A program made the translations under genes and the position numbers. A stretch of DNA of 64,000 nt from Chiloscyllium plagiosum. Lineage: Eukaryota. The DNA is taken from the NCBI RefSeq assembly GCF_004010195.1, contig NC_057718.1, positions 59,948,137 through 60,012,136 of the forward strand. Direction: 5' to 3'. Positions 346 to 63,887 of the stretch are shown here, one piece after another (within the stretch, counting starts at the first letter, position 1; each line of letters opens with the position of its first letter). Under the pieces are notes generated by a model that saw only the letters and a list, made by a program, of their open reading frames with translations, searched no databases and was not told the origin of the DNA.

Positions 346-864
346 ATATGCACATATACGTTTGTGGGGTGAATTTGTACTTGCAGAGTTACATTGCACT
401 TTGTTCAAAAACTGCATGAATCCATGCAAGACTCTGTTAACTCACTTTTTAGATTAGAATCAGTCCAAACATTATGGCACAGACAGGGAACACAGGGGAG
501 CTAACACCTTCAACATCTTAACATCTTATCTGGACTGACATCAATTGTTACAGTTAATCTGAGAATGTAACTTTTAAAAAAAGTTTTGTGATTTACATGT
601 GAAAGAAGTGAAACTAATATGGTCCTTCTAACAGAGGAGAGATTTAACAAACAATCAAGGTTTTTTTAAAGGAATCATTTCAGTTACATCACACTGTAAA
701 CCTTTGCTATAAATTCTGTCTTACAATTGTGTACCCCACAACCACCTGATGAAGGAGCAGCACTCCAAAAGCTAGTGCTTCCAATTAAACCTGTTGGACT
801 ATAACCTGGTGTTGTGTGATTTTTTAACTTTGTACACCCCAGTCCAACACCGGCATCTCCAAAT
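346..864 (+). mobile_element. Penelope-like element 3' region/pseudo-LTR (family A)
   Basis: Ends in cacctgatgaaggagcagcactcc-aaaagctagtg...aaacctgttggactataacctggtgttgtgtgattt; the same block recurs twice, inverted, at 63690-63887. Confidence 0.7.
743..777 (+). ncRNA. Minimal hammerhead ribozyme motif, probably inactivated (GAAA>AAAA)
   Basis: CAC-CUGAUGA(746-752)-a-GGAG...CUCC-[A]AAA-G-CUA-GUG; stem I CAC/GUG; palindromic AGCU in place of stem III. Confidence 0.7.
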
Positions 865-1001
865 CAGGCTAGGTGGATTAGCCAGGGGAAATGCAGGATT
901 ATTGGGTAACGGGGTGGGTCTAGGTGGGATGGTCGTTGGAGGGTGGGTGTGGACCCAGTGGGCCAAATGGCCTGCTCCCACACTGTGTGGCTTCTATGAT
1001 T
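865..1001 (+). mobile_element. HE1-type SINE, 3' half
   Basis: aggtggattagcca...ggagggt..gtgtggac...gggccaaatggcctgctcccacactgt matches the 3' half of full copies at 9676-9984 and 11488-11816. Confidence 0.75.
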
Positions 1002-1131
1002 ATAAAGAGCATTTTTTTAAAGCTTCGAATTGATAGCACACAGACCTTCATTGGACAATCTATAATACTGTGGGAAGTAAAAGAACTAGTCAAAGATTCT
1101 CAGATTCTGTTTACAGGTGATGAACAGGATG

Positions 1132-1730
1132 GAGTCATAGAGCTGGACACGATGGAAACAGACAACTTGGTCCAACATGTGCATGTTGACTAGCTACCCT
1201 AAATTAATTTGGTCTCAATGTGGCCCATATCCCTCTAAATTGTTCATATTCATAAACCCATCCAGATGCCGTTTAAATGTTGCAGTTGTACCAGCCCTCT
1301 TGCAGCTCATTCCTTACATGCACCACCCTCTGCCTGAAAACTTTGCCCCTTTGGTCCCTGTTATATCTTTCCTCTTTCACATTCAACCAATGCCCTCTAG
1401 TTTTGGACTCCTGAAGTTGGGAAAAAGCCCTTGCCTATTTACCCTATCCATGTCCCTCATGATTTTATAAACCTCTATAAGGTCACTTCTCAGCTTCCGA
1501 TGTTCTAGGGAAAATAGCCCCAGCCTATTCAGCGTCTCCCTATAGCTCAAACCCTCCAACCCTGGCAACGTCCTTTGAAACCTTTTCTGAATTCTTTCAA
1601 GTTTAACATCTTTCCTATAGCAGGGGATGAGGATTAAATGCAGTATTCCAAAAGTGACCTAACCCATGTCCTGTATAGCCATAACATGACATCTCAACTC
1701 CTATACTCAATGCACTGATCAATATAGGCA
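1132..1730 (-). mobile_element. CR1 (HER1-like) LINE, 5'-truncated 3' fragment
   Basis: Minus ORF PGLEGLSYRETLNRLGLFSLEHRKLRSDLIEVYKIM is the CR1 ORF2 C-terminus; ctatgact tail. Confidence 0.9.
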
Positions 1731-2133
1731 ACTGGACTACATAAACCAAACATGTTGTGAGCTCGATTCCAAGTTTGTGCTGGATTAGCTGAGTACTTCC
1801 AAAACAGAGCAGGAGATTCTTCCGTCCTATTGATTCACTGCTTAACAATCACTTTCTGGATTTCATTATAGAGAATAACCAATAGGCAAGGCACCATATG
1901 ATTCTGTGTATACCAACAAAAATCACCTATTTCAGAGTGGAGAAACTTGGGCTTTATTGCCCAATGTAATAACGTGAAACTCAAGTTATCGCTTTCCATT
2001 GTAATTGCAGCTATTTAAATTATTTGTCATTTCTATAACTGAGAATAGCAATGCACCAGAATGAAATGCCTGTGGCCCAGAATTTCTGATAGGAAATTGG
2101 TCAATGCAGCAGCATAGATTGAAGTTGAGCATT

Positions 2134-5860: not shown

Positions 5861-6609
5861 GGTCAATATCAAAACCCTGTCACAGTTGACTCTGCAGAAA
5901 TTGCCCAGGAAATTGATATTCCTTTTGGGCAATTTCCTGACATTTGGAAAATTCTGACAAAGTCCTCAATTCAGAGTTATAATCAATGACTGTGGGAGGT
6001 TATAATTTACTTAAGCTTAGTTCTTATCCTGGAGATGATGGAGGAATTAATATCTGCTCCAGCTCCTGAGGATTTATCAAACTGACACACCCCACCCCCC
6101 CCACCCGACTTACCCTCCAACTGAAGTCACTACCAATCCCAACTTGATACCTCCCATCCTGTGAACTAACAGGCACCTACCCAGCAGAACATACCATCCT
6201 GAACCCATTGGACAAAATTTGCTCCCTCCACCAAAAGAAGCTCTGACCCTTTTGGAACTAACACTTCCTCTGACTCAACACGCTTGCTCCCAATGCAACT
6301 TTAATTGTCCTGGAGGAAGTGCTGATGAGCTGCCATCTTGAACCACGGCAGTCCTCGGACAATTGTTTGAACTTTGACCCAGGACTATACAGGGAAAGCT
6401 GGTGAATACTGTTGTAATTAGCACTGCTAATTCAAATCTGAGGTTAAGAATTAAAATAGGGGGAGCTGGAGCAGATGAGAAAGAAGCAGAGTCTGATGGA
6501 GATACCACAGTAGCTGCAGACGATGCTGAGGAAGCCAGGGCAATTAATAGAGACTAGTTTTGAGAACTTCTGACTTTGCATCACCATTTGTGGACACTCA
6601 AAAGTAACA

Positions 6610-7385
6610 GTTGAGAGTATGGTGCTGGAAAAGCACAGCAGGTCAGGCAGCATCCAAAAAGCAGGATAATCGACATTTCGGGCAAAGGCCCTTCATTAGG
6701 AAAGAGGCTGTGAGCTGAGGGGGTGGGGAGATAAATGGGAGGGGCTGGGACTCGGGAGAAGGTAGCGGAGAGTACAATAGGTAGATGGAGGTGGGGTAAT
6801 AGTGATAGGTCAGAGGGGAGGATGGAGTGAATAGGTGGGAAGGAAGATGGACAGGTAGGACCAGTCATGATGGCAGTGCCGAGTTGGAAGGTTGGAACTG
6901 GGGTAAGGTGGGGGGAAGGGAAATGAGGAAACTGGTGAAATCGACATTGATGCAATGAGGTTGGAGGGTCCCGAGCTGGAAGATGAGGTGTTCTTCCTTC
7001 AGGCTTGGATGGTTAGGGAGTGGCAATGGAGGAGGCCCAGGACCTGCATGTCCTAGGCAGATTGGGACAGGGAGTTTGTCCACAGGGTGGTCAGGTTCGT
7101 TGGTGTAGGCGTCCGAGAGACATTCTCTGAAGCGCTCCGTGAGTAGGCATTCTGTCTCAAAAATGGAGAGGAGACCACATTGGGAGCAACGGATACAATA
7201 AATGACACGTGTGGAAGTGTAGGTAAAACTCTGAAGGATGTGGAAAGCTCCTTGGGGCCTTGGACGGAGGTGAGGGGGGGAGGTGTGGACATAGGTTTTG
7301 CAATTCCTGCAATAACAGGTGAAGGTGCAGGGAGGGGAGAGTGGGTTGGTGGGGGCCGTGGACCTGACAAAGGAGTTCCGGGAGG
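6610..7385 (-). mobile_element. Penelope-like element (family B): GIY-YIG domain + pseudo-LTR
   Basis: Minus ORF contains VIYCIRCSQCGLLSIFETECLLTERFRE and EEHLIFQLGTLQPHCINVDF; pLTR with hammerhead-like motif at 6668-6702 (CUAAUGA variant). Confidence 0.9.
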
Positions 7386-8113
7386 ACCAGTTCCACCACA
7401 GATCACACCAGATGGCCTCCTTTAAAAAAAGCAATTTCTCCTCCCACGTGGTCGAGGATGCCCTCCAGCTCATCTCCTCCACTTCCCGCACCTCCGTCCT
7501 TGAACCCCACCCCTCCAACCGCAACAAGGACAGATCCCCCAGTCCTCACCCTCCATCCCACCAACCTCTGTATTCATCGCTTCCCGACCTCTCCGCCCCC
7601 ACCCCAGTCTGACCTATCACCCCGGCACCTTCCCCTGAGGCTGCAGGAATTGCAAAACGTGTGCCCACACCTCCCTCCTAACCTCTGTCCAAGGCCCCAA
7701 AGGAGCCTTCATATCCTTTAGAGTTTTACCTACACTTCCACGCATGTCATTTACTGTATTCGTTGCTCCCGATGCGGTCTCCTCTACATTGTTGAGACAG
7801 GATGCCTACTCACAGAGCGCTTCAGAGAACGTCTCCGGGACACCTGCACCAACCAACCTTACTGCCCTGTGGCCAAACACTTCAACTCCCCCTCCCATTC
7901 AGCCAAGGACATGCAGGTCCTGGGCCTCCTCCATCGCCACTCCCTAACCACCCGATGCCTGGAGGAAGAGTACCCCATCTTCCACCTCTGGACCCTCCAA
8001 CTATACGGCATCAATGTGGATTTCACCAGTTTCCTCATTTCCCCTCCCTCTGCCTTATCCCAGATCCAACCTTACAATTTGGCACCTCCCTCATGACCTG
8101 CCTAACCTGTCCA
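7386..8113 (+). mobile_element. Penelope-like element (family B), second arm head-to-head with 6610-7385
   Basis: gtcatttactgtattcgttgctcccgatgcggtctcctctacattgttgag (VIYCIRCSRCGLLYIVE); AKHFNSPSHSAKDMQVLGLL...GINVDF; cut at ~8113 by a CR1. Confidence 0.9.
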
Positions 8114-9299
8114 TCAGTAAGGCATTCAACAAGGTTCCCCATGGGAGACTGGTTAGCAAGGTTAGATCTCATGGAATACAGGGAGAACTAGCCATTTGGA
8201 TTCAGAACTGGCTCAAAGGTAGAAAACAGAGAGTGGTGGTGGAGGGTTATTTTTCGGACTGAAGGCCTGTGACCAGTGGAGTGCTATAAGGATATGCCAT
8301 AAGTGCCATAATGGTGCTGGGTCCATTACTTTTTGTCATTTATTTAAATGATTTGGATGTGAGCATAAGAGGTATAGTTAGTAAGTTTGCTGATGACACC
8401 AAAATTGGAGATGTAGTGGACAGCGAAGAAGGTTACCTTAGATTACAACAGGATCTTGATCAGTTGGACCAATGGGCTGAGGAGTGGCAGATGGAGTTTA
8501 ATTTAGATAAATGCGAGGTGCTGCAATTTGGGAAAGCAAATCTAAGCAGGACTTATACACTTAACGGTAAGGTCATAGGGAATGTTGCTGAACAAAGAGA
8601 CCTTGGAGTGCAGGTTCATAGCTCCTGAAAAGTAGTGCCGCAGGTAGATAGGATAGTGAAGAAGGCATTAGGTATACTTTCCTTTATTGGTCAGAGTATT
8701 GAGTTTAGGAGTTGGCAGGTCATGTTGCAGCTGTACATGACATTGGTTAGACCACTTTTGGAATATTACATGCAATTCTGGTCTCCTTCCTATCGGAAAG
8801 ATGTTGTGAAACTTGGAAGGGTTCAGAAAAGATTTACAAGGATGTTGCCAGTGTTGGAGGATTTGAACTATCCGGCGAGGATGAATAGTCTGGGGCTGTT
8901 TTACCTGGACTGTTAGAGGCTGAGGGGTAACTTTATAGAGGTCTATAAAATCATGAGGGACATGGATAGGATAAATAGACAAAGTCTTTTCCTTGGGATG
9001 GGGGAGTCCAGACTAGATGGCATAGGTTTAGGGTGAGAGTGGAAAGATATGAAAGAGACCTAAGGGGCAACCTTTTCACACAGAGGATGGTGCATGTATG
9101 GAATGAGCTGCCAGAGGACATAGAAGAGGCTGTTACTATGGCAACATTTAAAAGGCATCTCGATGGGTACATGAATAGGAAGGGTTTGGAGGATATGGGC
9201 CGGGTGCTGGCAAGTGGGACTAGATTAGGTTGGGATATCTGGTCGGCATGGACAAGTTGGACCAAAGAGTCTGTTTCCATGCTGTATATTTCTATGACA
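8114..9299 (+). mobile_element. CR1 (HER1-like) LINE, RT + 3' end
   Basis: SKAFNKVPHGRL, VLGPLLFVIYLND, KFADDTK, LVRPLLEY.MQFWSP motifs; 3' tail tttctatga. Confidence 0.95.
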
Positions 9300-10023
9300 A
9301 TCCTTGGCGTCCTCACTGCATACTGCAAATTGGAGGGACAACACCTCATCTTCTACTTGGGCAGCCTACAGTCCAGAAGACTCAACATTAAATTCTCCAC
9401 TTTCAAATAACCTCCCTCCCCATCCCCCAACACCCTTCCCAGCCCCTCCCCCTCCACCCTTCCCAGCTCCTCCCCCTCCCCCTCCCTTCCACCAACCGGA
9501 TTCATTCCTCCCATTGACCAAACAGGTCAAACCTCTACCTGTCTTCACCGATCCCCACTTCACCACCCTGCCCCGCCACCTCCTTTATCTGCAGCTCCCC
9601 CTATACCACCCCCAGTCCTGAAGAAGGGTTACACATGAAACATTGACTTCTTTACCTCCTGATGCTGCCTAGCTTTAGATTACCTACAGTGTGGAAACAG
9701 GCCCTTCGGCCCAACCAGTCCACACCGACCCTCCAAAGAGTTTCCCACCCAGACCCATTTCCCTCTGACTAATGCACCTAGCACTATGGGCAATTTAGCA
9801 TGGCCAATTCACCTAACCTGCACATCTTTGGAGTGTGGGAGGAAACCAGAGCACCCGGAGGAAACCCGCACAGACACAGGGAGATTGTGCCAACTCCGCA
9901 CAGATATTCAGCTGAGGCTGGAATTGAACCTGGTACCCTGGTGCTGTGAGGCAGAAGTGCTAACCACTGAGCCGTAGTGCCGCCCAGCCTCCTGCTGTCT
10001 ACTTTGGATTCCAGCATCTGCAG
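9300..10023 (+). mobile_element. Penelope-like 3' fragment (family C) with pLTR, interrupted by an HE1 SINE
   Basis: KLEGQHLIFYLGSLQSRRLNIKFS; hammerhead-like AGUC-CUGAAGA...GAAACAUU-GACU at 9614-9648; tail resumes at ~9985 (ccagcctcctgctgtctactttggattccagcatctgcag). Confidence 0.8.
9676..9984 (-). mobile_element. HE1-type tRNA-derived V-SINE, full length
   Basis: Minus: ggcggcact..ggctcagtggttagcact (A box)...ggttcaattcc (B box); central gggtttcctccgggtgctc domain; CR1-like tail gggccgaagggcctgtttcc. Confidence 0.92.
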
Positions 10024-18627: not shown

Positions 18628-18791
18628 TTGAGAGTCTCTCCACCCCCGAGGCTCCCAGCCTTATTCCTGATGAAGGGTTCCAGCCTGAAACGTCAATTTT
18701 CCTGCTCCTCAGATGCGGCCTGACCTGCTGTACTTTTCCAGCAACACACTCTCAACTCTGATCTCCAGCATCTGCAGACCTCACTGTCTCC
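18628..18791 (+). mobile_element. PLE family B pLTR mini-insertion with hammerhead
   Basis: CUGAUGA 18667-18673 and GAAACGUC 18687-18694; direct repeats tatggtacattttag (18613-18627) / tatagtacatcttag (18792-18806). Confidence 0.85.
18663..18698 (+). ncRNA. Minimal hammerhead ribozyme, catalytic core intact
   Basis: CUGAUGA-a-GGGU-ucca-GCCU-GAAAC-GUC; stem II pairs with two G-U wobbles. Confidence 0.75.
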
Positions 18792-18809
18792 TATAGTACA
18801 TCTTAGGCC

Positions 18810-24060: not shown

Positions 24061-24362
24061 AAAAGCATATCGAGCAATAATAACATGCATGTTCAAACTT
24101 AATCTGATTTCAACTGCTGTGTTCTGACAGTGCCACGACTTTACTTCCCTGTATGTTGTCAGATTCATTTGCTGTTGTCAAGTTAAACTGAAAAATGCCT
24201 CTAGTAGTTTCCCTAGCATACTGGATTAAAATGTAATTATGTTTTACAGTCCCTAGCCTAGAGACAGACCAGTGTGGAATTCTCAGTTTATGTAGCTGAT
24301 TGAATATGTTATGATGGTTCCTTTCCTCTTCTTATATGGTATCCTTGCCTCTTCTTAAATGC

Positions 24363-25062
24363 TGTCCACACCTCCCCCCTCACCTCCATCCAAGGCCCCA
24401 AAGGATCATTCCACATCCGACAGAGGTTTTCCTGCACATCCAAACACCTCATCTATTTTGTCCATTGCTCTTGATGTGGTCTCCTCTACTTTAGGAGATA
24501 GGACTCTAACTCATGGAACATTTCAGAAAATATCCCTAGGTCACACTCAACAAATAACCCTAGCACTCTGCAGCTGACCACTTCAACTCCTCTGCCCAAT
24601 CCCACTCTGCCAAGGACATGCACATCCTGGGCCTCCATAACCGCCAAATCCTAGCCACTCAATGCTTGAAAGAAGAACACCTTATCTTCTACTTAGGACC
24701 CTCCAACCATATGGCATCAACTTTAATTTCACCAGTTTCCTCATCTCCCCTCCCCACCACCTCATCCCAGATCCAACACTCCAACTTGGTACCACCCTCT
24801 TGGACTGTCCCACCTGTCCATCTTCCTTCCCATCTATCTGCTCCGCCCTCTGCTCCAACCTATCACCATCACCCATTACCTACATCTACATATTGCCTTC
24901 CCAGCTACTTTTCCCCCGGCCCCATCCCCACCTCCTATCTATCTCTCAGCCCCACCCCCCCGACATTCCTGATGAAGGGCTTATGTCTGAAACATTTATT
25001 CTCCTGCTCCTCGGATGCTGCCTGACCTGCTGTGTTTTTCCAGTGCCACGCTTTCTGACTAT
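24363..25062 (+). mobile_element. Penelope-like element (family B): GIY-YIG + pLTR
   Basis: ccaaggccccaaaggatcattccacatc...; MHILGLH...LKEEHLIFYL; TLQPYGINFNFTSF; hammerhead-like CUGAUGA at 24969-24975. Confidence 0.88.
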
Positions 25063-30691: not shown

Positions 30692-31299
30692 CTCCCTCCG
30701 CGACTCCCTTGTCAGGTCCACACCCCCCCCACCAACCCAACCTCCACTCCCGACACCTTCCCCTGCAACCGCAAGAAATGCAAAACTTGCGCCCACATCT
30801 CCCCCCTCACTTCCCTCCAAGGCCCCAAGGGATCCTTCCATATCCACCACAAATTCACCTGCACCTCCACACACATCATTTACTGCATCCGCTGCACCCG
30901 ATGTGGCCTCCTCTACATTGGGGAGACAGGCCGCCTNNNNNNNNNNNNNNNNNNNNNNNNNNNNNNNNNNNNNNNNNNNNNNNNNNNNNNNNNNNNNNNN
31001 NNNNNNNNNNNNNNNNNNNNNNNNNNNNNNNNNNNNNNNNNNNNNNNNNNNNNNNNNNNNNNNNNNNNCTCCGCCCCCACTCCCTCTCCGGCCTATCACC
31101 CTCACCTTAACCTCCTTCCACCTATCGCATTCCCAACGCCCCTCCCCCAAGTCCCTCCTCCCTACCTTTTATCTTAGCCTGCTTGGCACACCTTCCTCAT
31201 TCCTGAAGAAGGGTTATGCCCGAAAAGTCGATTCTCCTATTCCTTAGATGCTGCCTGACCTGCTGTGCTTTTCCAGCAACACATTTTTCAGCTCTGATC
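30692..31299 (+). mobile_element. Young Penelope-like element (family B) spanning the assembly gap
   Basis: Intact GIY-YIG motif CNRKKCKTC...IIYCIRCTRCGLLYIGETGR; pLTR with CUGAAGA at 31203-31209 and GAAAAGUC. Confidence 0.93.
30937..31068. other. Assembly gap (132 N)
   Basis: Run of n characters. Confidence 1.
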
Positions 31300-33759: not shown

Positions 33760-33893
33760 CATTCCTGATGAAGAGCTTATGCTCAAAACGTCAACTCTCC
33801 TGCTCCTTGGATGCTGCCTGACCAGCTGTGCTTTTGCAGTGCCACACGTTTAGACTCTGATCTCCAACATCTGCAGTCGTCACTCTCTGCTCC
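33760..33893 (+). mobile_element. PLE family B pLTR mini-insertion with hammerhead motif
   Basis: CUGAUGA 33765-33771; stem II GAGC/GCUC; [A]AAACGUC; flanked by ctattctttccat / ctgttcttcccat. Confidence 0.85.
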
Positions 33894-35770: not shown

Positions 35771-37739
35771 AGGATATGCTTTTTCCTATGTTTTAGGCTA
35801 ACACTGCTGCAGCATATTAGATACTTCTCGACAGTATCTCTGTGCTATGGGTGTCTGCACATATACTATTAACAGTAGCTGGCTTTACTAGATTATCAGT
35901 TCTTTTGGCCTCTCACATCCCAAGTTAATCCTTACCCTAGAGTAAGGATCTTTCCCTCCGTCATGATTGTTACACTCTTCAGTTATCTCTATTCACTATA
36001 CGATACTGAATATGGCTCGCTAATATAGCATCTAAGACCTCCTCTTTATGAGCTTCATTTAATCTCTGCTCCAATCTCTTCTTCTGATCTGATCAGCTGA
36101 TGTCAGAGTAACATCATCAGTTACATATACATAATTTGCATGTTCAATTTTAAGTAGTAGATTTTATGTTTTGGATTTATGCAGAAATGATACTATATGT
36201 AACTGCTATTACTTACTGTACATTTAAAATGCTCTAGCTCTGGTTTCTAACTCTTTCTACAGTTTTGTTTACTTTCTCAGAATTTACACTCAGGATAAAG
36301 CAAACAATTGCAGTGACCATCAATAGTTCACATTCTAATATAATCAAATGCTGCAGGCACGATTTTCTTCTTGGGACTTGGTGAGGAAGATGGTTGGAAG
36401 GGCAACTAATTGGATAAGTTGACTCAGGAAAAATACTCAATTAATGACCAGTTAAGGGCTTCAGCTCACTGTTTACTTGATTATCTACCTTATTTACCAG
36501 GCAAGAAAAGAGGTCAGTTGCCCAACAGCAAAGCCAAAGGTGATATGCTGCATTTTGGGGAGTGGGGGTGGTGGGGTAGCTTCATTTGCCCTAACAACAG
36601 GACAGTCTTCCAGGTATATCATAATGCATTGCTACTGCTCAAGCTCAGAAACCTGGAACTTGTGTTGCTCTAGTGCTAACATTTCCCACACATGTTCCTG
36701 TACTGAAACAAGTAGTATCCTGAAGTTCCCACATAGAAGAAAATGCATATTTCATATGACTGCCTGTGAGACATCTATTCATTCGCTAGTGTTTAGTTGA
36801 TAAAAATAGCAATCTGCTAAAGGAAGATCTCCCAAATTGAATGATTATTGTAACAAGCTAACGTGATTGTACATCTATGACATATGCCAAAATCCACTGA
36901 TGACAAAAATTAAGTGAAGTTTCTACTTTTAGAAAATTTGCCTGAACTCTTGTCTATTGTAAACATTGGATAAATTTCCTTTGTTCAATGTCTTGTTGAG
37001 CTGTGTAAGACGAATGCATATTCTAATAAACTCATTCAATTTGGGTACAATAATGGTGGCCCAAGACCAATTGGCTGGTGTGCCAACATGGAAATATGCC
37101 CATTCCAATCACTTACTTGAGTTGCTTCTGGACTTGATTCATTATGGGATGCAGATTTCCTGAATATGTGCAGACATAATAGCTTAGTAACCTTCATTAA
37201 CTTGATGCTATATTAGACATTGAACTTTTCTAATCCTATGAACAATTTCAGATAACACTGCTCAAGGAAAATATTACACCCATGCTGTTTAACATCTTCA
37301 AGCTTATAAAGAAGGTGGAGGACAAGAGTGAGGCTTCCTGATTTTGAATTACATATAAATTCTCTATATCTGACATTCAGAGCTGCTTGAAGCATATATT
37401 TAATTATGAGTGTTGTGCTACCTGGACCTTGTACTTTCAACTCTATTGGCTCTGACATCTGTCTTCAGCCATCATATTTGATCTGATGAGATAGTCACAG
37501 TTTCTCCTGTATCAAATTGATGTTTATTGACATATGCTTGTTTTGTCAAATTCAAGTAACTTGAATAATGGGAATGCATGGGGTATTTTTTTCTAATTAA
37601 TTTGGTTTGGTCACATTTGTATCATTGTATATATAAGAATATGATTGCTTTCTGCTCTGGGTCCCACTATCCTCTGGAAGTGATCTATAATTTTCGAGCT
37701 GTAGCACTCTTTGTCTCTACTGGGCACTACTTGTGCAGA

Positions 37740-37823
37740 GCCGAAAATGTGTTGCAGCAGGTCAGGCAGCATCCAAGGAGCAGGAGAATCGACGTTTCGG
37801 GCATGAGCCCTTCTTCAGGAATG
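37740..37823 (-). mobile_element. 84-bp PLE family B mini-insertion (hammerhead + tail only)
   Basis: Direct repeats actacttgtgcaga (37726-37739) / actacttgcgcaga (37824-37837). Confidence 0.9.
37787..37822 (-). ncRNA. Minimal type-I hammerhead ribozyme, best-preserved copy
   Basis: Minus: auuc-CUGAAGA-a-GGGC-ucau-GCCC-GAAAC-GUC-gauu; all core nucleotides present, 4-bp stem II, palindromic ACGU. Confidence 0.85.
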
Positions 37824-38739
37824 ACTACTTGCGCAGATGAGGCTTTTTTCCTACATAGCACAATTACTGACTTACCACCTGCTGTTTGTTTTACTCTTTG
37901 TGTTGGCTTATCATGTGTCTCATTTGAGTGTTTTTATCTTATAGAGTTCTGTTGCTCTCTGATTAGATTATCCTTCTACCTTCAAGGATTCATCTCTGAA
38001 TCATTCTGGTTTCTGTTTCCAGCACAATCTGAATAGCTTTCTCCAATGTCAAATTGTCTTTGGACTGTAATAAATGTGACAAAATCTGATAATCTTCAAT
38101 AATTCCAACAATTCTGTCCCTGATGAGTTCTGATTCCAAAGCTCCATAGCCACTGGTTATCCATAAGTGGTAGAGACCCTTAATTAATGGAATTACTGAA
38201 CTCTTGACTTAAATGTTGCTTCTTGAAGAATTCTATTTGTTCTCAGATCAAAGTAATGTCAAAATGTAGTAGAGCTTTTTCAGATGTATCTATGCTGTTT
38301 TTTATGTGTTGATGATTTACAATATAATCAACTGAAGATATTGAATACAGTATATATTTATTAGTTTATTATTATTTATGTTTGAAGAAATTCTGTATTT
38401 TAAGAACTATATTTTTTCTCTGATACCCAATACTATAATATTTCTCCTGTTTATGTCTTCCTAATGAGATTATTTATTCTTATTACTTTGATAGTCTTAA
38501 ATTCTGCAAATCTCACTCCTGTTATAATATATTTCCTTTGAAGACTTTTACTACTGTAAATAGCAGTACAGTTTTGTGTTCCTTGTTTAAAAAATGAATT
38601 GTAAATCAGCATTGTATTCCTACTTTTAAAGCATTTAGTGATTTTGAATAGTAATGCTCTATAACTACTGTTAACTGGATGTTTTTCATTGACTTTGTGT
38701 TCAAAGTGGAAGTTTCTCCCTTGTGCTGTCAAAATGAAA

Positions 38740-39859: not shown

Positions 39860-39992
39860 TAAAAGCAAACAACTACAGATGCTGGAGATCCGAAGTATGA
39901 ACAGGAAATGCTGATGAAACTCAGCAGGTCTGACAGCATTTCTAGGAGAAACAGTTAACATTTCCAGTCCATAGTGACTCTTCTTCTGACTT
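39860..39992 (-). mobile_element. Old PLE pLTR (family E) with decayed hammerhead
   Basis: cagatgctggagatc...ctcagcaggtctgacagcat...gttaacatttccagtcc.tagtgactcttcttc. Confidence 0.7.
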
Positions 39993-40090: not shown

Positions 40091-40245
40091 GAAATAAAAG
40101 CACATTACTGCAGATGCTGGATATCTGAAACCAAAAGCGGCTTTGACAAAGAGTCAGTTAGACTCGAAACGTCAGCTCTTTTCTCTCCTTACAGATGCTG
40201 CCAGACCTGCTGAGATTTTCCAGCATTTTCTCTTTTGGTTTTGAA
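40091..40245 (+). mobile_element. PLE pLTR (family E) mini-insertion, inverted 5' piece + hammerhead motif
   Basis: [U]UGAC[A]A-a-GAGUC-aguua-GACUC-GAAAC-GUC at 40143-40173; taactgaaa repeated at 40082-40090 and 40246-40254. Confidence 0.8.
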
Positions 40246-41304
40246 TAACTGAAAAGACTGTTTGCTTAAAGTTGAAGCTGTTTTGTGTTTAGGGCCAACT
40301 GTGTGTGCCAACCACTGATAGGAATTCAAACTCAGCACAAAACATCTAATATTTTTGGCAGTGTTGGAGGAGCAATCAATGTCCATTGCATTAAATTCTA
40401 GGGTGAAACATTAGAGACAATTTGACCAATTTGGGGATTTGATTACTCAAGCCTGGTTGACGATATTGCTGAAATGTTCAACTATTTTTACAAGCTCACA
40501 ATGGCTGGAGAATGCTGATGAATAGACAGATAAATTTTCATTTGTATTATTGTGGAGGCACATTCAGCAGAAGAGCTGCTCATAACTCAACATGAGTACT
40601 GTTACCTCCTTCCTTGGATCTACCTTATTTTTACGTATGCATTCCAGTACACCAGTTATTTGGTGGCAGTTTCTGGGACAAAACCAATTTTCTGGCCCTT
40701 ACACACTGCTAAAGTTTTTCAGGTATGCCATATAAACCTCTGATCAATGTAAGAGTTAAATTGTCATCTGATATTCAGTCAGAGAATGAACTCCATGAAA
40801 TGGAGCACAGGCAACTCCAATGTCACTAGAATTTAAAACTGTACATGCTGTTTGGGTTTTCTTTAGAAAGATCAGTAGTTTGAAGTAATTTTCCAAATGA
40901 AGTATGATCAATTACTTCATGTGTATTTGTTAGTGAAATCAATAGCACTCCTTAAAACAAGCAGCCCTTTCAAAAGTTGAGTCCTGGTTTTATGGTCTTA
41001 AGGTCTTCTTATTTTTCCAAAATCAAAATAATTCACCTTTCAGTTAGTAAACATTAGTTGGTTTTTGACTGGCAGAACAAAATATCTCGGGAAAGATGCA
41101 ATAAAAATACAAAATGGAGCTGCAATATTAGTAGTGTCTTCATTATTACTAAATCCATTAAATAATATTTGTGGACGCAATGGTATAATTAATTTAAAAT
41201 TATGAAACTACTTTTTATGCTTATGGGTGCTTAGATTGAGAAGAGTAGCTACACTTAAAAGCAACAGAAATAGCTCTAATGTTGATCATTTGAAGTAGAA
41301 ATTA

Positions 41305-41699: not shown

Positions 41700-42660
41700 G
41701 TGCACAGTGGATGCTAATTGGTTGGCAAGTGAACTCCAATTGGTAGAGGTTTTTCCATGGGGAATGTACCAGTTAGATAAATTTAATCCAGGTTAAATTT
41801 AAACCCAGAGATTGACTGATTGTCATGAGGAATGAACCATGTCGTACAAGACAATTAGGACCTGAAAGGGTGAACTGATATCATGGGTAAGCTCCGCCAA
41901 TAAGGATATAAAAGTTATCAGAGTATAGGTTGTTACCTATTTTTGTTACACTGAAACAGATGGAATGTATACATGTATGCTTTCTGTCTGCAAAGACCGG
42001 GACCCTCTGATTTCATATAAAAACAGAATTTGCTGAAGAACCTCTAGCAGGTCTGGCAGCATCTGGGAAGAAAAAGTAGAGCTAACACTTTGAGTCCAGT
42101 GACCTTTCTTCAGTGTGGGTAATTTTATATACGCAGCTTCCAGTACATGCAAGTGCACAACAGGATAAGCCCAACTGACCACCTTAAATTGATAGCTAGA
42201 TTCTTTTGAGTTTTGCAAGCACAGGTTGATTGAGTCTGATTAATACTTGAACTGCTGCAAATAGCAGAAGGGGTATGTTGTTTGCAAGGGTCTCATCTTT
42301 GGGACGTATGACCTATATATGTAGAGTCATAACAGCACTGAAATTCACATACCACATTATTGATTGTGTGATAGGCACAACATGTTTTGGTTTGATGGTG
42401 GTATTCTTTTAAGAGTGACTGCCACTCATGTTGCTACTGCACCATAGCAGTTTCACTTATTGCTCAAATCTCTGAGACTCATTGCAAGGTAAGGTAGACT
42501 GGACACTTTTCAGGTTTTACATGGTGGTCTTTTCATGAATGTGTATCATATACAGTGAGAAATGAGTTGACCCAGGGTAGCCACTTGCTACCAAGAAGGT
42601 TTTGATGTATCCTATTTCAGGATCAAATTTTCACCATGAGAAAATGGCTCAGTCCCAATT
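41700..42660 (-). mobile_element. Old Penelope-like element (family F): linker + GIY-YIG + 3' UTR
   Basis: Minus: EIGYIKTFLVASGYP, PEKCPVYL, NNVVCEFQCCYDSTYIGHTSQR, FKVVSWAYPVVHLHVLEAAYIK, GPGLCRQK; interrupted at ~42015-42115. Confidence 0.8.
42015..42115 (-). mobile_element. PLE pLTR (family E) nested in the family F element
   Basis: Minus CUGAAGA-aaggucacuggacuc-AAAGUGUU followed by gatgctgccagacctgct tail. Confidence 0.7.
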
Positions 42661-43288: not shown

Positions 43289-43354
43289 TTTATTGCTATT
43301 TATCATAAAATTTAACTTACAATTATTTAATGTACCTGGCAGACATATGAATTT

Positions 43355-43506
43355 AGAAATGTGTTGCTGGAAAAGCGCAGCAGGTCAGGCAGCATCCAGG
43401 GAACAGGAGAATCGATGATTCGGGCATAAGCCATTCTTCAGGAACACATTTCCAGCAACACATTTCCAGCTCTGATCTCCAGCATCTGCAGACCTCACTT
43501 TCTCCT
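43355..43506. mobile_element. PLE family B inverted pLTR mini-insertion with perfect 15-bp TSD
   Basis: cagacatatgaattt at 43340-43354 and 43507-43521; minus arm 43355-43444 ends at the hammerhead motif; plus arm ~43445-43506. Confidence 0.9.
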
Positions 43507-45264
43507 CAGACATATGAATTTGTCTGGTAACCAAAGGTTTAGCAAAATGCATTGATTATCTATTTATGCAGATATTATTATCAAGGAGTTGGCAGAATTA
43601 ATTGACAAAGATATTCTTGGGTTGTTTTTATCTTGCTGTGGTAACTTGTGTCCTTCAGCACAGCAAGTGAAGATAATGTAGTTATTGGAATAAATATTCA
43701 GTGTTGCAAAGCAATCATGTGGCAGGCAGGGAAAAAAATACTGCAGTGATTGCTGTGTGTTGGCAGTAGTTTTACATGATAAGACTTTAAAACATCCAGA
43801 TTAATATGATCTAATATAAATATGTACCTTAGGAAATACTATGGATTCCAATAAAGTAGCTATTGATATGCATTGTCAGGAAAGGACCTAATGCCCAATA
43901 ATGGTTCAGAGAATTCTCCAGTTCATACCCGAGCCATAGACCAGCTAGATTCCATGTTTGTTTCTCAATGACACTCCTTAGATATGTTGATTTCTGCCAG
44001 AAACATTTGGGTAGATTTACTGCTACAAATCCTTCTTGTGTAAACTAGTCTAGGCTATCAATACCATGTGAGGAAAGGTGCACATTTGACATTTTAGACA
44101 GAAGAGAGATTCAACCTTGATAAGCAATAAATACGTTAATTCCAGGTTACTTAAAAACTAATTACATTACACCAAAGCTACATGGTTATATCTTTCTTCT
44201 TACTTCTCTTGGCAGAATATGTCTTAATTTCAGTTAGTTTATACGGATAACATTCCAAATATTTCAGAATTATCTTTATATATACCTGTTATTATCATCT
44301 CCAAGGGTTTAAAGATTGCTGGAATACTTTCAAATGAAGGAATACTGCATTTTAAGTTCTGTACCAAGTAGAAGAACTCGTTTTTTACACAAATTTCCTC
44401 TTTTCTCTGTGATTTTCATATCCTTTTTAGCACTCTGGAGAATTTGCACCCGTTCTACTTTTTCAAGTTTTTAAAATGTTATTATACATTGGAAAAAAAA
44501 GGCATCACATTGATAATGCCTGTGGAAAAAAAAAGTCATTTATCTTGAACAATAAAACTTTGCCTTTCCCTTCAAAACACTGGTTTTAATTAACATTTAT
44601 TTTGTCTTCAACTTTTTTTCATGCTCATTAGTCAACTTATGCTGCCAGTTTCCCAATTTTCTTTACAAATGTCTTTTTTTAACGACATTTTTGCTCAGTA
44701 GCTGTTCCCTATTTCTTACCCATCCGCTAAGGAACAACACACAGTAATGTATCCCACAGTTATGATTTTGACATTTCGTCTTGCAGCTTTGGTGACACTC
44801 TGCTTAGTATTTGTGAGCATTTTCAATATTTTTCACTCGTGCTGACTGAGGTTGGCTTTTAAAGGCAATCTCATTGTTGCTATGACTCCTGCAGCCTTTT
44901 TATGGATAACTGCTGCTTTCACTTACACTGAAGTCTCCATGTGCTTTTAAGCTGCTGAATATTTAAAGATACACTCAGTTTCCTGATTGTGTTTTTCTCT
45001 TTGCACTTTGGATGTCTGGGACTTTTGTTAAATGGACTTTCTTCAAGCTATCAAATTACTAACATATTTTATGTGACAATGGTGCCTACCACTGCTAGGA
45101 TCTTATGTTGTACATCTAAGATAGATGTGCATCTCTTGTGAGACATCAGGCTCAACTGAAGAGTAACTTCACTTTACAGCCACTAAAACATTTTCACATA
45201 GAACTGGCAACACACACACAGAACTGTAACAGCATTAAAAACTTCACTTTGAATCTGAATTATT

Positions 45265-54160: not shown

Positions 54161-54377
54161 GGTCGGAATGTGATCGGAAGGCACAGAGACATTTGGGCGG
54201 CACGGTGGCACAGTGGTTAGCACTGTTTGAGTGTATCAGATTATTGAGGATAGCCAGGGAGATAAATTCACATAAGGTTTTCATGACAGTGCCTCACAGC
54301 CGCATGTCCTACAGCCAATCAGCCAATCAGACATAATGATAGACCAGATCTGGCAATATGACAGGAGTAACTAATGG

Positions 54378-54517
54378 GAGAAAGTGAGGACTGCAGATGC
54401 TGGAGAGTTCTGAGTTGAAAAGTGTGGCACTGGGAAAGCACAGCAGCTCAGGCAGCATCCGAGGAACTGGAGAGTCAATGTTTCGGGCATAAGCCTTTCA
54501 TCAGAAATTCCTGATGT
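54378..54517 (-). mobile_element. PLE family B pLTR mini-insertion with hammerhead motif
   Basis: Minus CUGAUGA-aAGGC-uuau-GCCC-GAAACAUU; direct repeats aggagtaactaatgg (54363-54377) / aggagtaattaatgg (54518-54532); junction catcagaaa|ttcctgatg is a short inversion. Confidence 0.88.
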
Positions 54518-57962: not shown

Positions 57963-58164
57963 GTTGTATCTGTCCAAATGTTTTTCAACTGTTGCAACTG
58001 TACTTACCTCTGGCAGCTGGTTCCATATACGGACCACCTTCTGTGTGAAAAGGTTGTCCCTCAACTGCCATGATTTTATTTTACCTGCTCGAGCAGACTC
58101 AAGGGGTGAAGGGCCTCTCATGCACATAATATGCATGTTTATACATAAAAGACAATACCTTATT

Positions 58165-58620
58165 TAGAATCCTTACATTGCAGATAGAAGCCATTTAGCC
58201 CATTGAGTGTGCACCGGCCCTCCAAAGAACATCCTGCTCAGACCTCCGTAACTATCCCTGCATTAACCATAGCTAATCCAACCACCTGCACACTGCAGGG
58301 CAATTTAGCATGGCCAATTCACCTAGCTTGCACATCTCTGGACTGTGGGAGGAGACTAGAGAACAGGACGGAAACCCATACAGACACTGAGAGCACATGC
58401 AAACTTCACACAGTCACCCAAACCAGACCCAGAATCTCTCCCAGGTTTGCTCTTAAAAAGGTAGTAGTGAGCTACCTTCTTGAACCATGAAACGTCAATT
58501 CTCCTTCTCCTTTGATGCTGCCTGACCTGCTGCGCTTTTCCAGCAACACATTTTTAAGTCCTGGAATCAAACCTGGATCCCTGACAATGTGAGGCAGCAG
58601 TGCTAACCACAGTGCCACTG
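58165..58620 (-). mobile_element. HE1-type SINE containing a chimeric insert (~58420-58558)
   Basis: V domain at 58298-58420; tRNA head resumes at ~58560 (ctggaatcaaacc...gaggcagcagtgctaaccac). Confidence 0.8.
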
Positions 58621-58764
58621 GGCTCACTTTTTACTCAGGCAGGGATGATATTTCTCAAGGAACAAATGTATTCATTTATCTGCTGTTTGTGGAATTTTTC
58701 TTTGCTCAAATTAACTCTGATGTTTGTAAAACAGTAACAGTGACTTGAATTTAACTGTAACTGA

Positions 58765-59390
58765 TTGACATTCAGTGGCATTACCATCTTGAACCACAGT
58801 TTTCAACATTCTGGGAGCTAGCACTGACCAGGGACTGAACTGGTCCAGCCACATAAATACTGTGGCTATAAGATCAGGTCAGCAGCTAGAAATTGTGTGA
58901 CAAATAACTCACCTCCTAACTTATAAAAGCATAACGCCCCACTTTCCTAAATGAGTGCTGCTGCAATAAACTTAAGAAACTCTATAAATTATCCAGTGCA
59001 AATACTGCCTGCTTAATTGGCAACTAATCCATTCCCTTCAACATTTACTTGCTCTACCAAAAACACACTGTGGCAGCAGAATGCATCATGTATAAGGTGC
59101 ACTGCAGTAACTCACCAAAGTTCCTTTGAAAATATGTTCCAAACCTGTCACCCATACCAACTAGAAGCTAAGGACTTGCCACCACTTGCAAGTTCCTTTC
59201 CAAGCTACACAGCAACTGATTGGAAAAAAAAATCACCATCCCTTTACTGTCATTGAGTCAAAATTCTGAAACATCCTTCCAAACAACATTGTGTTTGCAA
59301 TGGTTTATGAAGGTAGCTCACCACTCCCTTTCTTAGGGCAATTAGATATGTGTGTTAATTAGCAATTCCCACAACCTAAAAAGAAATGAA
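58765..59390 (+). mobile_element. LINE family B 3' fragment
   Basis: actgaactggtccagccacataaatactgtggcta...aaggtgcactgcagtaactcaccaa...aaggtagctcaccac...agggcaattaga. Confidence 0.8.
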
Positions 59391-60077
59391 AAATAGTGCT
59401 TCATAAATGCAAATATTATTTATTCTTATCCACCTAATATTCCTTGTTGAAATGAAACTGTCAACCAAATCCCCCTATTTGAGCAGTTCTCCTCTACAGT
59501 CCACTTAAAGAATGCACTTCTTTCCTCATTTCTTCTCACCTGTCACTTTGGTGAGAATTGATTACCTCAAATGGCTGCGTCCTTATGATCTACCTACAGG
59601 GCTCCATTTTTGACCTCCTATTCTTTATCAGTTACACTCATCAGAATACTGTGCCTCACGTGTTCTACCACATGAAGGTCTGTACACACTAGGCCTTGAT
59701 AGTCCATTGTCCCCGAGAATCAATTTTGGTTTGCTATGGCCTTGTTTCACCTTATTCTTTCAATTGCTCGAAACATATTATCCATTTTGCACATGCCTCC
59801 ATTCATTGCAGACCAGCTTATCCCTATTTACCTCTATTATTTGGCGCTTCTTTTTTAATGCAATTCCCTCTGGAATTTCGTTCCAACTGATACATTTTGC
59901 TACCTTCAACTTTGCTTTCAAAAGCCTCTTAAGACCCTTTTCTTTGGCATGCTTTTGTCAGGTTACTGCAGTGCACCTTATACATGATACATTCTGCTGC
60001 CACACTGTGTTTTTGGTAGAGCAAGTAAATGTTGAATGGAATGGATTAGTTGCCAATTAAGCAGGCTGATTTGCACT

Positions 60078-60493
60078 GGAGGTTGAGTAGGTTAGGCTTG
60101 TTTTCATTAGAAAAAAGGAGATTGAGGGGGGACCTGATTGAGGTTTACAAAATCATGAAGGGTATAGACAGGGTGGATAGAGACAAGCTTTTTCCCAGGG
60201 TGAAGGATTCAATAACGAGAGGTCATGCTTTCAAGGTGAGAGGTGGAAAGTTTAAGGGGGATACACGTGGCAAGTACTTCACACAGAGGGTGGTGAGTGT
60301 TTGGAACGCGTTGCCAGCAGAGATGGTAGAGGCAGGCACGGTAGATTCATTTAAGATGCATCTGGACAGATGCATGAGTAGGTGGGGAGCAGAGGGATAC
60401 AAATGCTTAAACAGTACATTTGGATCAGCTCAGGCTTGGAGGGCCGAAGGGCCTGTTCCTGGGCTGTAAATTTTCTTTGTTCTCTCTTTGTTC
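60078..60493 (+). mobile_element. Young CR1 3' fragment with (ttctttg)-type tail
   Basis: Uninterrupted RLSRLGLFSLEKRRLRGDLIEVYKIMKG...FTQRVVSVWNALP; gggccgaagggcctgttcc stem-loop. Confidence 0.93.
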
Positions 60494-61307
60494 TTCCTTA
60501 ACCTCTCTTCTTGCATTAATTTCCATGTAAATCCAAATCCAATTTTGTAAAAATACTCTTACATTCATTGTTCTATGCAAAGAGCATTATACATACATAA
60601 ATTGTTGACATTGTGTTCACATTCAGTTCACTAGATGGCAATCTATTCCACAAGTTTAAAAACTCAATGTGTAAGTAAAGTAGATATTCCTTAAATTACT
60701 TTCATAGCTTCCTTAGCTTCATAACTACTTGCCTCATTCTCTCCTGCTTCAACACAACTGGTTTTTTTATATCCACTTCACCAATTTTATTCTTGACATT
60801 TAAAAAATGTTGATTTTATTGCAAGTACAAAAATCAAATCTTCCTTTACTAATTGATTGCAACCATATATATCTCAGGCTGCTTCTCCATAATGGGAACA
60901 CTTGCAGTACAGGAAGTATTTTCAAGCTGTAAATAAACATGAGATGTGATGCACTGAGTGTGATTTTTGTCAGGACTGTCAGCGGCAAATTTGCCACCAA
61001 GGATACCAATATGTTTTTCTTGTTAATCACAATGTTTTAATTACTTCTTTTTTACAGAAATATATCATTTTGAAATATTTGCGGAATAATTAATCATTGC
61101 AATTGTTACCTTCTTGTGCAGCTGAAAAACTATCGGCATCAGGCTTTAGATGAGTTTTCGATTCCTTATATAAAACTGTTTATTTCCACACAATAATAGT
61201 CAATATTTCTCAAGCAAAAGTTGCATGAAGATATAAAAAGGAAGGAGTGTGAAAAGACCATTTAGAGTTCTCAGCTAACTGTATCAAGCAGACCCAGCTT
61301 GGTCCTT

Positions 61308-61481
61308 CAGAAATTGGTGGCAAAACTCAGCAGTTTTGGAAGCATCTGTGGGAATGAAACAGACTCCGGTGAACTTGAAATTTTCTGATGAAAAGTCACC
61401 GAATTCGAAACGTTAACTCTGCTTTCTTCTCACAGATGCTGCCAGACCTGCTGAGTTTCGCCAGCAATTTCTGTTTTTGTT
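61308..61481. mobile_element. PLE pLTR (family E) inverted pair with hammerhead motif
   Basis: 61308-61363 is the reverse complement of 61418-61473; CUGAUGA at 61385-61391 and GAAACGUU at 61407-61414. Confidence 0.82.
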
Positions 61482-63689
61482 ATAATAACTATTTGCTTTG
61501 TTTCTAAACCAAATTTTTGTAGAGAGTTTTATAGCACAGCTGTAGGGTACAAGTTGCCAATAGCAATTAGGTGATCTTATCCAGAATCATTGTACAGTAA
61601 CAAACCAATGGCGTGAATCTGATCGTGGAACAATATCTGTACCATGCTGTTTCTCTCCATGTACTGCCACCATAATTCACAGCACATGACAGAGATTTTA
61701 TTTGTGATCAAGCTAGCCCAATTTACATCTTGTTTAATTTGTGTTACTTATAAGAAAAAAACTAATGAAGATGTAAAGATACACAAGAAGCAGCTTCAGC
61801 AAGTGCCATGCTCACTGTGTTACCCTCTGGTAATCAGTAATTTACCCACCTTGGTGCCAAGTATTCCTCAGCTGGCACTGTTATCTGTCAAAGTTCTGTG
61901 TGAGAAGGTGAGTCACTGACATCATTTGGTGAAAGGAGGCTGAAATGTAGCAGAATATGATTGAGTTTATGAAAGAATCAAAGTCAAGGGATTGATGGAA
62001 AAATGTGTTTCTAGACAGATCAGTTTAACTCATTTGTTTTACATTTCTGACCTAGGCCTCATGAATAATTACAGCTGCTTGTAACAATTAATGAGGTGAA
62101 CTCTTTTAGCTTTAAGTGTCAATATATCTTAACTGGTCCTTCTTTTAAAAAATCGCAAATGCACTCCCTTGATGAGTGAGTTAGTAAACACATCAAATCA
62201 TGGAGAATTGGAATATTGAAGAGTGAATTAGTGACCTTTGCTGAGCCGAGGCATCAGTCAAGGCCCTATGGTTGGCCTCTGCTCTGGGTTTAAGAGGGAG
62301 AAAAGAACACAGTTATTGCTGGAAAGCATATGGTGTCGATATCAGGTGAGTTCAAGCTTAGTTGACATTTACGGTCTTGACTTATTTATAGTCACTTTTG
62401 TGACATGGTTGAGGGGACAGCATGCATGGAACCACATTCCCAGAACAACCTGCATTTCGGGAGAAGGTGGTAGAACATTAGAAGTCGAAAATAGCAAATG
62501 CTTAATATCATCGTAATTGAGAGTACTTAATTCTGTTTGGTATTAGTTCTCCTTCCCACCTATACTCATGGAGGTGCTGATTCAGGTAGAGGTGCATTTC
62601 CATAGGTCATAGGGAAGTATCTCGCCTAGCTGATCTTTCTGAGAATACAAGCCTCGATTTTGATCGCCAGCAGCTATTTACCATAGAGAGCATCACAGGG
62701 AGCACAAACCAAACATTCATTACAAGCAGATACTTGGCACAGGAATCACTGAAAAAATATTCAGAACTGGGAACTATCACTGATTCATTTTCATTCTCTT
62801 GCAGCACAAAATGACTTTAAGACATTTTTAAAATAGTGAAGAAAGAATGTCCTCAATCAAAGCAATGCAATAATTACAATAGTATTGAAATCAGGCACAG
62901 TAATGGAGTAATATCTAATCTCACATAACTGTTGCTGCATGGCAAGCTATTCTTAACTAATCATCCATTTAAAAATGCAATATTTAATGGAAATATTAAT
63001 TACCTGGTTATGTAAAGGAAATCCTTCAACTTACTAGGTTAATAATATAATCACATTATTAATCAATTCACAGCCAAATTCTTTCTCAAAAGGCAGTAGT
63101 CTTTAAAAGTAACACAAATCACTATAATAATGCAATAACCCGAGTGGATGAAATGCATCCAAAAATATTGAAAGAAACTAGAGAGAAGAAAGTGGAGACA
63201 TTCACACCCAGATATCAACATTATCACTGCAAAAGAACTAGTAGACAGCTACAGTAATTCATAACATCAAGAAGAGGATTAGAACTAATTCAATGAAATG
63301 AACTTGCAGATGGAAATGTAGGATGGGTTTTTTTGACTCTCAGGCATGGTTGTCACCCAAACATGGCAAAAATAACAAGCTGCCTATGGACAGCAGTGGG
63401 ATGAGAACAGCAAAAGATTCATATCATATCCCCAGCAGGAATGATCACTGGCAGTCAATTAAGTGGATCAGGGCATTCCTAATCAATGTCAGTAAAGATA
63501 TTTAGTTGGGGAGTTAAAAAAAGTTATTAAACCTTTACTGCTTCACCTTGTGTTTTAATCTAATACTGCTCCAGCTGTATCTTTCCAATACACCGCTCTT
63601 GAGACTGCTTGCTCTTTATCTCTAGGAAGCCTCTTCAATGGCTGGTGTACTGTAATACTCTATGTATATCTGTACATAGTAGATTATTA

Positions 63690-63887
63690 TGATTATGGAG
63701 GTACCAGTGTTGGACCGGCCTAGACAAAGTCAGAAGTCACAAGATACTAGGTTATAGTCTAACAGGTTAATTTGAAATCACAAGCTGTTGGAGCATTGTT
63801 CCTGACAAAGGGGCTACACTCCGAAAATTTGTGATTTCAAATAAATCTGTTGGACTATAACCAGGTGTCATGTGATTTCTGACTGTG
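63690..63887. mobile_element. PLE family A inverted pLTR pair with decayed hammerhead
   Basis: agtcagaagtcacaaga..aggttatagtctaacagg..ttgaaatcacaa mirrored by ttgtgatttcaa..ctgttggactataacc..gtgatttctgact; gtagattat repeated at 63679-63687 and 63887-63895. Confidence 0.82.

Follow-up and report, generated by a model that had tools for sequence, protein, structure and literature searches.

Minimal hammerhead ribozymes have been described in Penelope-like elements (PLEs) of metazoans, where the core carries an extra nucleotide that separates position 9 from position 10.1, next to a G10.1-C11.1 pair, stem III is missing and a palindrome occupies positions 15.2-16.2, and the stems show compensatory changes between families (Cervera and De la Pena, 2014, PMC4209133). 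Most copies are solitary remnants of truncated PLEs, and opposite-strand pairs occur. The same features are found in the stretch of shark DNA analyzed here, a window of 64,000 nt from Chiloscyllium plagiosum (NC_057718.1, positions 59,948,137-60,012,136; genome size 3.56 Gb). Its motifs are minimal type I hammerheads in the pseudo-long terminal repeats (pLTRs) of Neptune-type PLEs, which fall into families A, B, and C. We consider it very likely that these covarying hammerheads sit in PLE end repeats, are neutral once inserted, and were deposited by reverse transcription of uncut RNA predicted to start at stem I.

The kind of motif, the idea that it acts as a dimer, the solitary copies, and the replacement of C3-G8 by U3-A8, there in Schistosoma, were already known from the earlier work (PMC4209133). 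Stem II differs, with 4-5 bp in the shark and 7-8 bp in Schistosoma. The Poseidon element PAc of Anolis carolinensis likewise carries its hammerhead at the junction of pLTR and open reading frame and has two alternative 3' ends, which differ by a tail; uncut RNA is its main template and no reads end at the cut site (Frangieh et al., 2024, PMC11167929). In contrast to PAc, the shark elements have a Neptune-type linker, and their start codon is probably located some 19 nt past the cut site, that of PAc being at stem II. With the Neptune clade (Craig et al., 2021, PMC8557442) and the Penelope pLTRs of Adineta (PMC3846280), the shark elements share a reverse transcriptase, a zinc-finger-like linker, and, at the C terminus, a GIY-YIG endonuclease, as well as 5' truncation, inverted pLTRs, and a tail of 30-40 bp. 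In the shark, copy ends accumulate at the hammerhead's first base, a pattern not found in the portions of these two sources that were available to us. Finally, non-LTR retrozymes are derived from pLTRs, contain type I hammerheads, and have been described in one chondrichthyan (bioRxiv 10.64898/2026.07.22.740005). They are tandem repeats with a hammerhead in each unit, while the shark copies are solitary or arranged head to head; the window contains no tandem units that each carry a complete hammerhead, and short partial tandems occur elsewhere in the genome (L028).

The original prediction listed 15 motifs, and each of them was recovered with its position and strand (Table 1). It assigned the pattern CUGANGA...GAAA to every site. 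The family forms do carry the core CUGANGA, GAAA, and NUH, and seven of the 15 window sites have the exact CUGANGA...GAAA; the remaining sites deviate, and core letters are kept in eight once the U3-A8 variant at 40139 is counted. Single core defects were found at 6668 (G5A), 39955 (U4A), 43410 (A15.1U), and 63800 (G8A), and G12A occurs at 743, 33761, and 42080, the last combined, as read by eye, with A15.1G. The reduction of stem III to an ACGU or AGCU palindrome similarly describes the family forms, with the palindrome being kept in only six of the 15 window copies (site 63800 has AAUU at this position). Only 37787(-) and 40139(+) retain core, stem II, palindrome, and first stem I pairs together, and these two come from different families and are in opposite orientation. 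A 16th copy, truncated at its 5' side and absent from the prediction, is located at 58488-58558.

A strict descriptor (exact core, 4-bp stem II) gave four matches in the window, compared to a mean of 0.08 in 12 dinucleotide shuffles, and a chance origin of the window motifs is excluded. With one mismatch, 11 matches stood against 3.75 in the shuffles, and with two mismatches 58 against 39. Given that relaxed matches approach the shuffle level, the broken sites are validated by repeat homology rather than by the pattern: 14 of the 15 sites match other copies in the window by BLAST, and site 9614 is a member of a small subfamily cluster. An Rfam scan of the window returned no hammerhead at E-values up to 5 and one chance match to a snoRNA, which is not evidence against the motifs because the Rfam models require stem III.

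Covariation of the stems between families, as originally predicted, was borne out at the family level, including a control in which stem arms were swapped. We collected 659 copies by downstream sequence only, 408 of which fell into 22 clusters; the majority form of 18 clusters contained a core, and 16 distinct architectures were represented. Stem I occurs as CAC/GUG, AUUC/GAAU, AGUC/GACU, AGUU/AACU, and AGCU/AGCU, with paired changes between C-G and U-A at one pair and between U-A, A-U, and C-G at another. The fourth pair of stem II is C-G, U-A, or G-C, and its first pair is G-C in eight of nine family forms, the exception being a decayed consensus of three copies. The palindrome reads ACGU in families A, B, and D (a further family discussed below) and AGCU in family C, and the extra nucleotide is A in families A, B, and C and U in family D. 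In stem II, 62 of 64 cells were paired versus 57.4 after arm swaps, and in stem I 49 of 64 versus 42.7. Because these 16 rows share ancestry, with family A predominating, the resulting P values of about 0.001 are not true probabilities; about six architectures are really distinct. The subfamily of site 40139, in which U3-A8 replaces C3-G8, has 1,851 exact copies, and the GAGC/GCUC stem II of site 33761 marks a subfamily of 161 copies, nearly all of the 100 listed being on one background. A canonical type I hammerhead has stem III and a 6-bp stem I with loop-loop contacts, whereas the shark forms have a stem I of 3-4 bp and no stem III. The commonest subfamilies, with stem I AUUC/GAUU, carry a U.U mismatch in this 4-bp stem, a feature absent from the original prediction and one that speaks against a robust ribozyme. 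Predicted pair probabilities for stem I in context are at most 0.125, and the palindrome duplex is predicted at -3.1 kcal/mol.

That these are hammerheads of PLE pLTRs is supported by reverse transcriptase and GIY-YIG frames linked to the same ends. Each motif lies at the 5' side of a repeat end of 90-130 nt, and at four of the 15 sites (6668, 9614, 24965, and 31199) the sequence immediately upstream, in the same orientation, retains part of a PLE frame by tblastn. One genome copy (L030) contains an RVT_1 match (E 4e-10), a CxxxxCxxC linker, and a YIGET motif, all in one frame; the linker between reverse transcriptase and endonuclease reads CNRKKCKTC. A CX2-5CxxC linker marks Neptune or Nematis PLEs (PMC8557442), and it is this linker that points to a probable Neptune assignment. 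Pfam matches to GIY-YIG in L028 and in the relatives P0001 and P0002 were weak (E 9e-5 to 7e-4, near the cut-off), and five endonuclease fragments of the window had no Pfam match, their identity being taken from relatives and longer copies. The nearest named proteins come from sharks and skates, with a best identity of 76%, and the endonuclease fragment had 75,920 first-look candidates genome-wide, 150 of which were scored. Family C copies have their own GIY-YIG-like remnant and a CA-rich 3' untranslated region (UTR) upstream. Within a sample of 168 family A copies, the optional tail is present in 80 and a join to an inverted copy in 73. In family B, a pyrimidine tract ending in CAG directly precedes an ATG (e.g. 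window 40178-40200) and could be a splice acceptor; the ATG opens a frame, MLPDLL..., in families A and B and is the likely start of the PLE protein. The skate gene models P0005, P0006, and P0008 fuse the PLE endonuclease to other domains and are probably annotation artefacts.

The original claim of a very large dispersed number of motifs is supported. Core-letter patterns matched exactly at 210,519 sites genome-wide (control 1,192) and the AGCU-family pattern at 46,773 sites (control 31), amounting to about 257,000 core-letter-intact sites; these patterns check letters rather than pairing, and the reversed-pattern controls reach 0.07-0.6% of the counts. Sites with an exact core and a stem II of at least 4 bp numbered 43 in 573 kb of evenly chosen stretches (reversed control 0), or about 75 per Mb, a few of which are probably due to chance. 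A query with downstream sequence, which leaves family C uncounted, identified 205 family A/B ends in 1.153 Mb from 120 evenly chosen stretches, and the density of about one motif per 4 kb noted for the window is therefore typical of the genome. Published counts are about 4,000 for the coelacanth and 9,000 for Xenopus, obtained with different descriptors, which makes the comparison rough, and no shark is named in the relevant portions of that paper (PMC4209133). At about 2.6 x 10^5, the core-intact sites of the shark nevertheless stand well above the vertebrate figures given there. A literature search, whose coverage excluded subscription journals, Repbase, and supplements, retrieved no report naming these motifs in sharks; the 2026 preprint on one chondrichthyan (bioRxiv 10.64898/2026.07.22.740005) and the 2014 paper may hold counts in their supplements.

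What becomes of the copies after insertion can be read from their mutations. In the family A sample, 93 of the 168 copies span the core. It is kept in 63, together with stem II in 54, with stem II and the palindrome in 32, and with all of these plus the first two pairs of stem I in 27; the last number extrapolates to about 80,000 such family A copies genome-wide. Non-CpG core positions were changed in 34 of 930 cells and non-core positions in 31 of 744 (P 0.61). The decisive test is offered by the CpG at C11.1-G12, where C to U leaves a wobble pair, which is tolerated, while G to A removes the general base of the hammerhead. Genome-wide, we counted 4,922 copies with C11.1U and 4,874 with G12A (binomial P 0.63), a difference of 48 with a standard error near 100. 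Given that the catalytic change is as common as the tolerated one, inserted copies decay neutrally, with no sign of either preservation or purging; a handful of domesticated ones could escape the resolution of such bulk counts. The function of G12 as general base has been reported (PMC6155905). While the within-genome variability of the motifs was left unexplained in 2014, with RNA-to-RNA steps being suggested (PMC4209133), CpG decay and neutral change account for it in the shark.

The 5' ends of the copies provide information on the RNA from which they were made. In family A copies without an upstream box, the match to long copies drops from 0.86 at -4, where stem I begins, to 0.36 at -5; the corresponding values for B2, the subfamily of site 40139, are 0.72 and 0.38. 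TATAAAT is found 35-36 nt upstream of position 3 in B2 and 38-41 nt upstream in family C (20 of 40 copies), and TTATCT 33-36 nt upstream in family A (42 of 133 copies). In the 70 nt examined, the boxes never occur at other places, and in A and B2 they lie 30-32 nt upstream of the 5' edge. The edge of family A resembles YYANWYY, the initiator consensus. Putative TATA and initiator elements have also been noted in Adineta Penelope pLTRs (PMC3846280). Only five of the 168 family A copies start at the cut site, four of them at inversions.

We propose that a promoter of the TATA/initiator type in the 3' UTR would start the RNA of the element at the first base of stem I, a start site suggested by the copy ends. 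The reverse transcriptase of the element would prime internally, about 95-130 nt further on, and run off the 5' end of the RNA, leaving short stubs; internal priming by a PLE reverse transcriptase has been shown for the Anolis element (PMC11167929). Head-to-head joins would result from two run-off copies whose priming took place on opposite strands, and full copies would need read-through into a second, uncut pLTR. Start at stem I combined with internal priming would thus explain stubs, tails, and head-to-head joins together. The hammerhead would be under selection in active source elements only, where it probably cleaves slowly, either by dimerizing at the ACGU/AGCU palindrome or assisted by the protein of the element. 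More tentatively, and with clear doubt on our part, the hammerhead could constitute the first 32-36 nt of a capped RNA, such that cleavage would decap the message and sever the read-through template, resulting in a self-limiting switch, with the stubs, hundreds of thousands in number, being run-off copies from the priming site to the cap.

Several observations weigh against this account. With regard to the host element, families B and B2 are tied to PLEs only through homology of their downstream part to family A, a frame lies upstream in just one of 25 B2 loci, and no intact full-length source element was found among six long frames that were fetched, most of which proved to be assembly gaps and the others truncated. 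With regard to the promoter, the boxes were chosen after the sequences had been inspected, the family A box TTATCT is not a canonical TATA, only three of 35 B2 copies extend as far as the box, and the 5' edge of family C is diffuse (-3 to -8). In addition, Penelope of D. virilis has a different layout, with a TATA-less internal promoter and an intron 46 nt after the start. Genome-wide, a small excess of starts at the cut site over a control position five bases further (761 versus 399, 1.9-fold, in a pool of 83,307) falls largely on inversion joints with microhomology. When 30 of each were inspected, inversion joints accounted for 18 at the cut site and 21 at the control and mutated intact copies for five and four; foreign flanks were called by script in seven and five, and in four and one after PLE-derived flanks had been removed by eye. 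GA microhomology with the inverted arm was present in eight of the 30 cut-site matches.

The mechanism proposed here competes with several other explanations. It is extremely improbable that the motif is a chance or purely DNA-level pattern, such as a promoter element or palindrome, without a ribozyme: the lack of an Rfam hammerhead and the U.U mismatch in the dominant family would fit such a pattern, but paired changes affect both stems, the palindrome, and the 3-8 core pair, reversed patterns return few matches, and the homologous Anolis motif cleaves and is partly rescued by a double change at 3-8 (PMC11167929). The original prediction further inferred a reservoir of working ribozymes that could cleave a transcript crossing the locus, and the sheer number of core-intact and fuller copies, as well as repeat-derived reads in a poly(A) library, could be taken to suggest that intact dispersed copies act on host transcripts and host gene expression. 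This claim is not supported, as catalytic letters are lost neutrally, without excess or deficit of G12A, and we regard an active reservoir as highly improbable. No same-strand intact pair exists in the window or in any of 120 10-kb pieces, stem I is predicted to pair poorly, published monomers do not cleave and dimers do so weakly (PMC4209133), one of nine Xenopus dimers was cleaved, and the Anolis hammerhead needs the protein of its element and is dispensable for insertion in vitro (PMC11167929). In one shallow poly(A) library, of which about 2% was read, no transcript crossing the locus was seen over window 31070-43190 (12 of the 64 kb); the 2,390 reads fell almost exclusively on repeat copies, 97% continuing into unlike sequence, with no pile of read ends and no RNA depth in unique DNA around 37787. 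None of 125 non-repeat frames of the window matched Pfam, a search in which short exons would be missed. As a rule, dispersed copies probably do nothing to host RNA. Elsewhere in the genome, a PLE copy ends in two directly tandem, core-intact family A hammerheads with a spacing of 96 nt (L028:2732 and 2828, minus strand), a candidate for a natural cis-dimer.

The huge number of short copies with a common 5' edge, together with the pLTR-derived retrozymes described in vertebrates, raises the question of whether stubs are a separate non-autonomous element, similar to a short interspersed nuclear element (SINE) or a retrozyme, that is transcribed from stubs and recopied. We consider this unlikely, given that stubs are devoid of the upstream box, that they agree to the letter with the subfamilies of longer PLE 3' fragments and pass gradually into these, that they have the tails and inversions typical of PLEs, and that the window has no tandem arrays of stubs. 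Somewhat less unlikely, though still doubtful in our view, is that the 5' edge reflects stalling or fold-back of the reverse transcriptase after the hammerhead, or a splice junction, instead of the RNA start. Inversion joints make up many of the edges (73 of 168 copies), PLE palindromes have been proposed to self-prime, family A has a pyrimidine-rich tract with a terminal AG about 17-20 nt upstream, and the D. virilis intron ends at helix I (PMC4209133). The edge, however, is located 13-20 nt downstream of this AG, a position that rules out the splice-site reading; moreover, its position in A and B2 is precise to a single base, it keeps the same distance from an AT-rich box across families, and the fold is weak.

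Table 1. Features of the window. Hammerhead coordinates are given in the direction of the motif.
Feature	Position	Strand	Remarks
TATAAAT box, family C (predicted promoter element)	708..714	+	from sequence; 38 nt upstream of hammerhead position 3
Family C pLTR	743..866	+	hammerhead 743-777, G12A (broken); CA-rich upstream sequence resembles family C 3' UTR
Family A PLE 3' fragment	6609..7392	-	GIY-YIG remnant 7392-6871 (tblastn), 3' UTR, hammerhead 6702-6668, G5A (broken)
Inverted PLE fragment (thumb/linker/GIY-YIG remnant)	7379..8115	+	head-to-head with 6609..7392 element
PLE 3' fragment, AGUC/GACU subfamily	9294..9672	+	hammerhead 9614-9648 keeps its core letters; stem II and palindrome are disrupted
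Family A pLTR stub with tail	18635..18794	+	hammerhead 18663-18698 keeps core and palindrome; first pair of stem I is disrupted
Family A PLE 3' fragment, GIY-YIG remnant	24340..25060	+	hammerhead 24965-25000 keeps its core; palindrome and stem I are disrupted
Family A PLE 3' fragment (linker CxxxxCxxC, GIY-YIG start, internal assembly gap)	30758..31299	+	hammerhead 31199-31233 keeps its core; palindrome is disrupted
Family A stub with tail, GAGC/GCUC stem II subfamily	33760..33891	+	G12A (broken)
Family A stub	37736..37824	-	hammerhead 37822-37787 has the family form, intact; predicted cut after 37791
Family B stub	39900..39990	-	U4A (broken)
Family B2 stub	40139..40250	+	intact; core with U3-A8, stem II of 5 bp, stem I of 4 bp; cleavage predicted after 40173; inverted tail directly upstream
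Family B stub	42019..42115	-	G12A and A15.1G (broken)
Family A stub fused to inverted tail	43357..43507	-	A15.1U; first pair of stem II disrupted
Family A stub with tail	54374..54508	-	keeps its core letters; first pair of stem II and palindrome are disrupted
Family A stub, truncated within hammerhead	58488..58558	+	
Family B head-to-head inverted pair	61308..61490	+	hammerhead 61382-61417 keeps its core letters; stem II is disrupted
Family C head-to-head inverted pair	63690..63888	+	hammerhead 63800-63833: G8A (broken)

Beyond the families of the window, the additional family D (L026:6381, L026:6823, and L075) combines its U extra nucleotide with a 6-bp stem II, in the variants GUUACC/GGUGAC, GUCACC/GGGGAC, and GUUACC/GGUAAU. 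At L125 and L128 (centre 1501), a core with a 4-bp stem II (AGCA/UGCU) has no evident stem I; the two copies are nearly identical and have about 400 nt upstream in common, and this motif may be another family or a chimera.

Other features of the window include a CA-rich array at 17-349 that resembles the family C 3' UTR, a (CTAT)n microsatellite at 43222-43289, about 70 nt past the 3' end of the 43410 stub, and an assembly gap of 132 N within a PLE copy (30935-31066). Such gaps within PLE copies are frequent in this assembly, and full-length elements are under-represented as a result. A dispersed repeat of 300 nt, which we take to resemble the HE1-type SINEs of sharks, occurs at 9675-9980, 51694-52035, 55000-55300, and 58164-58623 on the plus strand and at 11598-11689 on the minus strand. 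Fragments of a long interspersed nuclear element, presumably CR1-like, lie at 1296-1731, 8124-9297 (with an RVT_1 match at 8290-8625, E 3e-9), 19852-20845, 28678-29302, 56777-57935, and 59962-60396, and one of them adjoins the inverted PLE fragment ending near 8115. An inverted repeat of 105 nt (59007-59111 and 59962-60066; 97% complementary, 850 nt apart) encloses a frame of 148 amino acids at 59614-60057, which has no Pfam match.

The genome-wide CpG test, by showing that inserted copies are neutral, answers the idea of a ribozyme reservoir and at the same time accounts for the variability in sequence for which the 2014 study had no explanation. From the 5' edge come a testable place for the start of transcription and a simple origin for solitary pLTRs, and this edge bears on the purpose that hammerheads serve in PLEs. 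The B2 form, with its U3-A8 pair and 4-bp stem I, and the C form are good natural constructs for cleavage assays. Should the self-limiting switch apply, which we advance as tentatively as above, the shark genome would be a fossil map, at base resolution, of the ends of PLE RNAs, most of them uncut and about 1-2% possibly cut in vivo.

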